Source of the DNA: Lytechinus pictus
Taxonomy: Eukaryota
DNA: 64,000 nt
Direction: 5' to 3'
Assembly: GCF_037042905.1 (NCBI RefSeq)
Contig: NC_087245.1
Coordinates: forward strand, 23,438,001-23,502,000
Part shown: piece after piece, positions 55,065-56,033 of the stretch
How positions within the stretch are numbered: position 1 is the stretch's first letter
Layout: each line of letters opens with the position of its first letter
The notes under the pieces: generated by a model
Told to the model about the DNA's origin: nothing
What the model saw: only the letters and a program-made list of their open reading frames with translations
The model's database searches: none
Made by a program: the position numbers and the translations under genes

Positions 55065-55178
55065 AAAGCATCTTGGTTTTCCACGTATTGGCAATAATAA
55101 TAATAAGACATCAGAAATGCGAAACAAATTCACGAGTAATGCAGTTTTTGAAGTGCCAACAATTAAGTTCTTTTATTC

Positions 55179-55224
55179 AATCTCCAAATTTTCGGTAGAC
55201 ATCTACCTTCTTCAGGGAAGATTC
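55179..55224 (-). ncRNA. Minimal type I hammerhead ribozyme motif (mirror copy)
   Basis: Exact reverse complement of 55259-55304. Confidence 0.65.
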
Positions 55225-55258
55225 GTGAATTGAATATATTCAATTCGTGACAATTCAC

Positions 55259-55304
55259 GAATCTTCCCTGAAGAAGGTAGATGTCTACCGAAAATTTGGA
55301 GATT
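55259..55304 (+). ncRNA. Minimal type I hammerhead ribozyme motif
   Basis: aatcttcc-CTGAAGA-a-GGTAG(atgt)CTACC-GAAA-ATTT-ggagatt. Confidence 0.65.
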
Positions 55305-56033
55305 GAATAAAAGAACTTAATTGTTGGCACTTCAAAAACTGCATTACTCGTGAATTTGTTTCGCATTTCTGATGTCTTATACATATATAAATATATATAT
55401 AAATATATAAATATTTATATACACACAATATTAATTGCATCCGGAAGTTATAACTGCATGCATGCAAAGTATGCATCCATTTATTTTATTTAAAAAAAAA
55501 TCTATAAAAAGTGGAAAGATTGAACCCATTCTTAGAAATGAAATTAAGGGAGGAAAATGCAATTCAATTATAACAACCATGAAAATGATAATGATGATAA
55601 TAATTGTAAATTTAAAAGCATGAAAGCCCGCATGACAGATAACAAAATGAATTGGAATGAAATTGAAAATGAAAACGGAGCTGACCGTAAGTCAAACCCG
55701 ACCACAACGCTCATTCATTGTACATGTATAACGGCTGTGTGTGCGTATGCGTATACGTGCAATACATGTATAGCAGCTGCATGTGTGTTAGTGAATAGCA
55801 TGAACAGAATCAGAGAACCTCGGCAAATTTTATGATCCAATTACCATATACCATTAAAAAGCAGAATTTGAGTACACATTCTGAAAAAGAAGTATTTCAT
55901 CTACTTAAACAAATACAAAGTATGTACAGTATAGTACCATCTTCGCGTGAATGTGACATTTTATTATTTGCTTCGTCAGCAGTATTGTAGCCTTTGTATA
56001 TAGATTATAATTTCTCCCGCTCAATTAAGCCAA

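Follow-up and report, generated by a model that had tools for sequence, protein, structure and literature searches.

A 310-bp insert in the 64,000-nucleotide stretch of Lytechinus pictus DNA analysed here (hereafter the window) is very probably a single recent insertion of a Penelope-like element (PLE), whose cDNA ends were broken off early and whose hammerheads are predicted to be locked in a hairpin. Its parts and its immediate surroundings are as follows.

54949-55065, no strand: left part of the target, a (TA)n tract of 58.5 copies at period 2 by Tandem Repeats Finder
55054-55067, plus: left copy of the 14-bp target-site duplication (TSD), exact match to 55378-55391
55068-55105, minus: 35-38-nt tail, on the left arm only (family contigs)
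55106-55232, minus: tailed arm, 127 bp, 5'-truncated 3' end of the element (contigs run on beyond 55232)
55179-55222, minus: minimal type I hammerhead, minus copy, predicted cut after 55186, mirror of 55261-55304
55233-55250, no strand: junction, 18 nt, apparently of short templated pieces (inner exact palindrome 55227-55246)
55251-55377, plus: untailed arm, 127 bp, 5'-truncated 3' end of the element
55261-55304, plus: minimal type I hammerhead, plus copy, predicted cut after 55297
55378-55391, plus: right copy of the 14-bp TSD
55378-55421, no strand: TA-rich tract, right part of the target (Tandem Repeats Finder)

The palindrome can be traced at 55103-55232 and 55251-55380, where the arms are complementary at 130/130 positions around an 18-nt spacer, exactly as the original prediction had described it. 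The 14-bp direct repeat abuts both ends of the insert; it finds no third site in the window, and of the 106 14-mers in the left TA tract a single one is also present in the right tract. As this duplication is exact on both sides, it delimits the insert to 55068-55377, and since the outermost 3 bp of the 130-bp arms overlap the duplication, the true arms are 127 bp long. The termini of the insert are unequal: the left terminus is formed by the tail, which is single copy within the window and unrelated to the right terminus. TA microsatellite had been noted on both sides of the palindrome; it is present on both, but does not touch the left arm, from which 35-38 nt of family sequence separate it. 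The truncation points of the two arms agree within 1 nt. With 0 mismatches in 127 bp, arm divergence is bounded at 2.3% (95%), which is in line with a young copy, gene conversion between the arms being a possible alternative.

Perfect palindromes are not unique to this site. A second exact inverted repeat within the window, which has the appearance of a young TIR element, has 145-bp arms at 43736-43880 and 44478-44622, separated by 597 bp; another pair is found at 43487/44851. A short MITE-like element with 51-bp inverted ends is present twice, at 8328-8486 and 56189-56315, and another MITE-like structure has 59-bp inverted ends with G/C runs (54015-54073 and 54431-54489), which enclose 357 bp with short internal repeats. 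An inverted array of 42-bp and 16-bp tandem units occupies 41073-41502. Read by eye, the window has the character of animal DNA and contains decayed LINE-like frames, among them a frame-shifted LINE-like element on the plus strand at 12040-17190 with ORF1, endonuclease and RT frames (a related piece is found at 48272-48907), and exon-like frames at 33689-37691 (+) resemble a monocarboxylate/MFS transporter.

Sequencing-run contigs offer a view of the family to which the arms belong. Contigs from 4 of the 8 listed runs (2, 20, 9 and 1 records) were aligned to 55066-55275, a comparison that covers the left side of the insert; 6 of the 8 runs are listed with small shares (0.04-0.18). One contig is identical to 55068-55232 (165/165), with tail and arm contiguous, and a second matches the insert at 118/119 positions. 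Among 19 listed contig pieces, 4, which come from two runs, stop exactly at 55068. Because contig pieces cover 55068-55105 and end at 55068, this stretch can be recognised as the tail of the family, present on the left arm only. A sister subfamily, commoner in the runs, has a tail 6 nt shorter. Together with the intact TSD and the absence of arm mismatches, the identity to family contigs supports the young age that had been proposed for this copy.

On the upstream side, the contigs of runs X1, X2 and X6 share letters beyond 55232 for up to 113 nt, and these letters differ from the spacer; the 30 nt of them that were displayed are AT-rich. Extension past 55232 in three of the four runs indicates that the family is longer than the arm and that both arms are 5'-truncated ends. 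The proposal that the palindrome is itself a non-autonomous PLE or retrozyme-like unit is therefore not supported, as each arm is a truncated end of a longer family sequence and no tandem copy is present in the window. Contig cover on 55066-55275 leaves 55234-55275 bare and thus bears neither for nor against the junction. Two further listed contigs (runs X2 and X4) match the hammerhead part 55183-55223 only, with unrelated flanks, so that another family in the host runs keeps the same core. This second family is an abundant repeat, and its stem II region is 3 nt shorter.

A motif scan confirms one hammerhead motif on each strand and places the predicted cut of the plus copy after 55297, as had been proposed. 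The 5' strand of stem I runs to 55267 and is followed by CUGAAGA (55268-55274) and an extra A (55275). Stem II (55276-55280 paired with 55285-55289) has a 4-nt loop and the closing pair G55276-C55289; GAAA (55290-55293) and then ATTT lead to the 3' strand of stem I, which begins at 55298. Stem I comprises three straight pairs and is extendable past a bulge. The attributes of a minimal hammerhead are all present, namely the core CUGANGA...GAAA, the extra base between 9 and 10.1, the pair G10.1-C11.1 and the palindromic 15.2-16.2 (AAUU), which supports the reading as inverted minimal type I hammerheads of the Penelope-like kind. The palindromic AAATTT of the original prediction holds in part: AAUU at 55293-55296 can form helix III of a dimer, but not all six letters of AAAUUU can, as by the standard hammerhead numbering, which we assume here, helix III in the dimer is limited to these four positions and the cleavage triplet is UUU.

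The motif is not a chance occurrence. Its descriptor matches 1 in 200,000 shuffles of the arm and 2 of 1006 window tiles, both of which are the insert copies. Rfam yields no hammerhead match that reaches the gathering score in the window, where only a tRNA does so, and no hammerhead appears among the 34 matches at 55080-55400 up to E 10; the hammerhead call hence rests on the motif and on covariation. The best sub-threshold Rfam matches are hairpin-shaped miRNA models, which we rejected as shape matches below their gathering scores. A tRNA-Glu(TTC) gene (62 bits) lies at 56034-56105 on the plus strand, 650 bp downstream of the insert.

Covariation was followed with a core-only pattern that specifies nothing beyond the core, the pair closing stem II and three letters of stem I. 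The pattern matches 110 metagenome loci and none (0 matches) among viral contigs. The three unfixed pairs of stem II all form in 76 of the 110 loci, compared with a shuffled mean of 7.1 and a maximum of 17; among the 61 distinct sequences they form in 33, compared with 3.9 after shuffling. An alignment of 16 rows, hand-picked as the window motif and 15 of the 110 loci (each family with a visible stem II contributing one or two), has 92.8% of its cells paired with 37 double changes, and 0/500 shuffles score as high; because of the picking, this percentage leans high, the unpicked count being the 76 of 110. Four Watson-Crick pair types occur at the third stem I pair in the same alignment. For the stem I counts, 1 of the 110 loci was omitted for want of flank. 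This third pair is Watson-Crick in 25 of 37 distinct motifs positive for stem II (shuffled 13.3) and in 17 of 28 of the stem II-negative set (shuffled 8.7). The stem II-negative set also pairs above its shuffled level, indicating that it holds decayed copies along with chance matches. Core and helices had been expected to covary among genomic copies; they do covary across families that share the core, the copies compared being those of other families.

Some of these loci also connect the motif with PLE proteins. A Pfam scan of 76 of the 78 upstream same-strand frames, with two duplicates of L019 omitted, places GIY-YIG above the cut-off in two (L075 and L041), the remaining 74 having no GIY-YIG match. 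The two frames end 373 nt (L075) and 129 nt (L041) before the hammerhead motif, and tblastn finds related PLE pieces upstream of the motif in L045 and L008. Longer relatives of the L075 frame contain GIY-YIG in 4/4 cases and an RT domain in 3/4, and carry a DKG motif, with a cysteine linker preceding the nuclease, both being features of Neptune and Nematis (PMC8557442, in excerpt). In the window, tblastn with four PLE proteins gives no match at E<=1, and the arm outside the hammerhead matches 0 of the 110 metagenome loci. As the arm matches no ORF-bearing locus outside the hammerhead, its link to PLE ORFs runs through the motif type and the form of the insertion. The expected adjacency to PLE ORFs is accordingly absent from the window, but is found at two loci of other families, where the motif lies downstream of GIY-YIG.

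Locus L075 displays two more features. A second GIY-YIG frame, encoded at 1841-2527 by the other strand, lies across a TA tract from the first and is oriented towards it, with two PLE-like ends arranged tail to tail, and at 1323-1480 the body end and the tail end both finish with GTGTCT before TA-rich sequence. The insert ends (55363-55377 and 55068-55082) finish with GATGTCT and GATGC. To judge by these letters, a short motif may be common to both RT start sites.

The head-to-head form of the insert is not an isolated case. We compared it with a family of 42 loci, unrelated to the insert and with the same type of hammerhead, mapped on two natural copies. Its upstream frame has no Pfam match; by eye, it resembles the endonuclease end of Penelope. 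Head-to-head pairs make up 17 of the 42 loci. A tail is found on exactly one arm in 15 of these 17 pairs and on both arms in none (0/17), a TSD of 10-15 bp with at most one mismatch accompanies 11 of 17, and the hammerhead region is kept in both arms in 6 of 17. Truncation within 6 nt of symmetry occurs in 4 of the 17 pairs (permutation P 0.02), with L090 and L018 having near-symmetric arms and 17-nt spacers. Near-symmetric truncation is thus the minority form, which counts against the PLE reading. Palindromes are found in further families too (L058 and L102).

The one-tailed pairs (L014, L018, L021, L025, L047, L050, L054, L063, L064, L067, L068, L077, L090, L093 and L099) display a marked polarity, with the untailed arm reaching further 5' in 14 of 15 (binomial P about 0.001). 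This suggests a fixed order of priming; coming from one family in one assembly, with loci that are perhaps non-independent and with insert arms that differ by 1 nt, the polarity is to be read as a lead. It is a rather unlikely extension of the present reading that in head-to-head Penelope inserts generally one RNA is primed at the untailed site before the tailed one, the earlier cDNA becoming the longer arm and the later one the shorter, that templated template-switching of the kind read from the 18-nt junction stitches the cDNA ends, and that each such event leaves a perfect hairpin masking the hammerheads, so that the insertion mechanism would itself seed the small RNAs by which the element is silenced. 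Loci L050 and L073 have an identical head-to-head junction, located about 24 nt upstream of the match and overlapping by 10 nt, while their tail and downstream letters differ; the junction may recur at a microhomology. The ten letters that immediately precede the tail in the insert (55107-55116) equal, once reverse-complemented, those that immediately precede the tail in the comparison family, a likeness for which chance is possible.

A greater level of detail on the joining of the arms is offered by the 18-nt junction. The spacer is composed of an 8-nt match to 55302-55309, a 10-nt fold-back and an 8-nt match to 55221-55228, after which the right arm begins, and 55227-55246 forms an exact palindrome inside the junction region. 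All 18 of its letters are covered by 8-nt arm matches or by the fold-back, compared with a shuffled mean of 1.07 and 1 in 20,000 shuffles as high, for a coverage criterion that was fixed only after the sequence had been viewed. We infer from these letters that the junction was probably written by serial microhomology-guided template switching, with either the RT of the element or host end-joining as its agent. Positions 55248-55253 are identical to the first six family-contig letters past 55232, so that a snap-back on a 3-bp micro-hairpin is possible as well.

Folding predictions point to a hairpin rather than to active ribozymes at this locus. In the nearest-neighbour model, whose estimates leave out tertiary contacts and protein help, the hairpin of the full insert reaches -224.9 kcal/mol on the plus strand and -223.7 kcal/mol on the minus strand; with the hammerhead forced, the value is -157.4, a cost of about 67 kcal/mol. 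The original prediction had offered self-cleavage and hairpin folding as two options. A head-to-head insert, however, is transcribed antisense arm first on either strand, so the two options are unbalanced, and the hammerhead stems have a probability below 0.0001 at all four nascent lengths that contain stem II. Only the hairpin potential is retained from that proposal, as a 127-bp hairpin is predicted on both strands and would form if the site were transcribed. For a single arm, the probability of a hammerhead-compatible fold is 0.02, rising to about 0.2 once the arm is trimmed. The active dimer, with a helix III of 4-bp A-U, is estimated at -15.4 kcal/mol, compared with -24.2 for two monomers and -35.6 for the inactive dimer, and dimerisation in cis is impossible for two motifs on opposite strands. 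Self-cleavage from the insert locus is therefore unlikely on these estimates. Minimal hammerheads are described as weak even as dimers (PMC4209133, in excerpt), the hammerhead of PAc cleaved only with protein (PMC11167929, in excerpt), and dimeric PLE hammerheads were treated by Lunse et al., as summarised in the available part of PMC6765202.

The insert has the attributes by which PLE insertions can be recognised: a hammerhead in the terminal repeat, an inverted 5'-truncated copy adjacent at the 5' end, a tail of 30-40 nt (here 35-38 nt) at one end only, and an AT-rich target with a short TSD. As far as the excerpts go, PLE insertions are described as having an inverted 5'-truncated copy, (TA)n targets and, at one end, a tail of 30-40 bp (PMC8557442), and with 9-10-bp TSDs and a 31-bp tail on one inverted pLTR (PMC3846280), where palindromes at head-to-head junctions are read as self-priming. 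PMC4209133 (in excerpt) describes minimal hammerheads in which an additional base precedes stem II, as well as pairs of motifs that occupy opposite strands at distances of 100-700 bp, and the accessible part of PMC11167929 reports that both strands are cleaved and extended and that the RT starts at two sites. By a pathway whose nicking, two-site priming, early stop and joining are drawn from the PLE literature, the GIY-YIG endonuclease of the element would nick the two strands of the TA tract at points separated by 14 bp, and reverse transcription would begin at two RNA sites about 35 nt apart, leaving one tailed and one untailed end. The cDNA synthesis would halt about 17 nt upstream of the hammerhead core, and a few rounds of microhomology-guided template switching, or a snap-back, would join the cDNA ends through the 18-nt junction. 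Carrying neither an ORF nor a tandem partner, the insert is probably inert.

The closest alternative keeps these insertion mechanics and changes the parent alone, taking the arms as ends of a non-autonomous, protein-free hammerhead repeat, a non-LTR retrozyme or similar, that borrows the Penelope machinery. We consider this improbable. No ORF was found for the insert family, its 30 displayed upstream letters are AT-rich, and retrozymes are derived from PLE pLTRs according to the available part of bioRxiv 10.64898/2026.07.22.740005, all of which would suit such a parent. However, at the loci that combine the motif with an ORF, 129-373 nt of non-coding sequence separate the stop from the motif, so that a short AT-rich upstream stretch is to be expected of an autonomous element too. 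Retrozymes are moreover described as tandem repeats of 150-450 bp, typically with canonical hammerheads, the minimal variants being assigned to PLEs (PMC7229834, in excerpt), and the window contains no tandem (direct) copy.

The remaining readings concern the palindrome as a whole, and each is far less likely again. A MITE-like or fold-back element that spreads together with its junction would have perfect arms, and further inverted-repeat elements are indeed present in the window; yet the insert has no inverted-repeat termini directly inside the TSD, the 35-38-nt tail being on one end only, and the family contigs of three of the four runs depart at 55232 with letters other than those of the spacer, which makes such a unit extremely unlikely. 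The same 0 mismatches might hint at an assembly or library fold-back artefact, a possibility that becomes very unlikely in view of a mirror that ends inside the element, where an artefact of this kind would extend into the flank as well, of differing flanks and of the exact 14-bp duplication that frames the insert, and since short-read contigs of other families independently show this form. A role of this copy in the host, whether as a functional gene for a hairpin RNA or as a ribozyme switch, could draw on the 127-bp perfect hairpin predicted on both strands and on the small RNAs that Penelope copies yield in a rotifer (PMC3846280, in excerpt). Identity to dispersed family contigs (165/165 and 118/119) and the intact duplication indicate a young insertion instead, and by eye 0 of the 52 frames of at least 70 aa in 44000-64000 resemble a host exon, leaving a host function very unlikely. 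Our literature search on hairpin siRNAs or self-priming from inverted Penelope inserts, with subscription papers outside its scope, returned one relevant paper, PMC3846280. The recent Penelope-like insertion offers the best explanation of the locus.

The head-to-head order, the single tail, the AT-rich or (TA)n target, the short TSD and the junction palindrome are shared with the PLE insertions of Craig et al. 2021 (PMC8557442) and Arkhipova et al. 2013 (PMC3846280), as far as the excerpts describe them. In contrast to these, both copies in the insert are cut to 127 bp at nearly the same point, which leaves no ORF and no direct pLTR, and the TSD measures 14 bp compared with 8-10 bp in the rotifer examples. 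With the minimal type I hammerheads of PMC4209133 (in excerpt), the motif shares CUGANGA with the extra base, the G-C pair closing stem II, the lack of a loop 3, the palindromic 15.2-16.2, the short helix I and the dual motifs on opposite strands; stem II has 5 bp here and 7-8 bp in Schistosoma. The supplements of that paper list motif alignments, in which this motif type may be included.

Animal non-LTR retrozymes (Cervera and de la Pena 2020, PMC7229834; Li et al. 2026; both in excerpt) are likewise short and non-coding, with a type I hammerhead, and likely PLE-related. The insert differs from them in being non-tandem, with its two motifs on opposite strands, and as it holds no monomer bounded by two cuts, release of a circular RNA from the locus is impossible. 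The in vitro behavior of PAc (Poseidon of Anolis; Frangieh et al. 2024, PMC11167929, in excerpt) is a parallel for both insert ends, for which extension of both strands from two RT start sites would account: two RT start sites define the tail, the target is AT-rich, and both strands are cut and extended. The parallel, as far as the excerpt goes, concerns priming and extension, and the clade of the insert may differ.

Since the minimal hammerhead and the inverted PLE form have both been published, the insert represents one more truncated PLE-like insertion, to which the templated 18-nt junction and the tail polarity of the comparison family add small mechanistic extras. The assembly of inverted PLE structures is named an open question in the available text of PMC8557442, and counts of junctions and tail polarity over many inserts could separate two-sided priming from snap-back. 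If junction-spanning small RNAs exist, inverted inserts would themselves supply the triggers of silencing. Set beside the known systems, the present copy is a clean young specimen, whose TSD is exact, whose junction can be read and in which both RT start sites are preserved.
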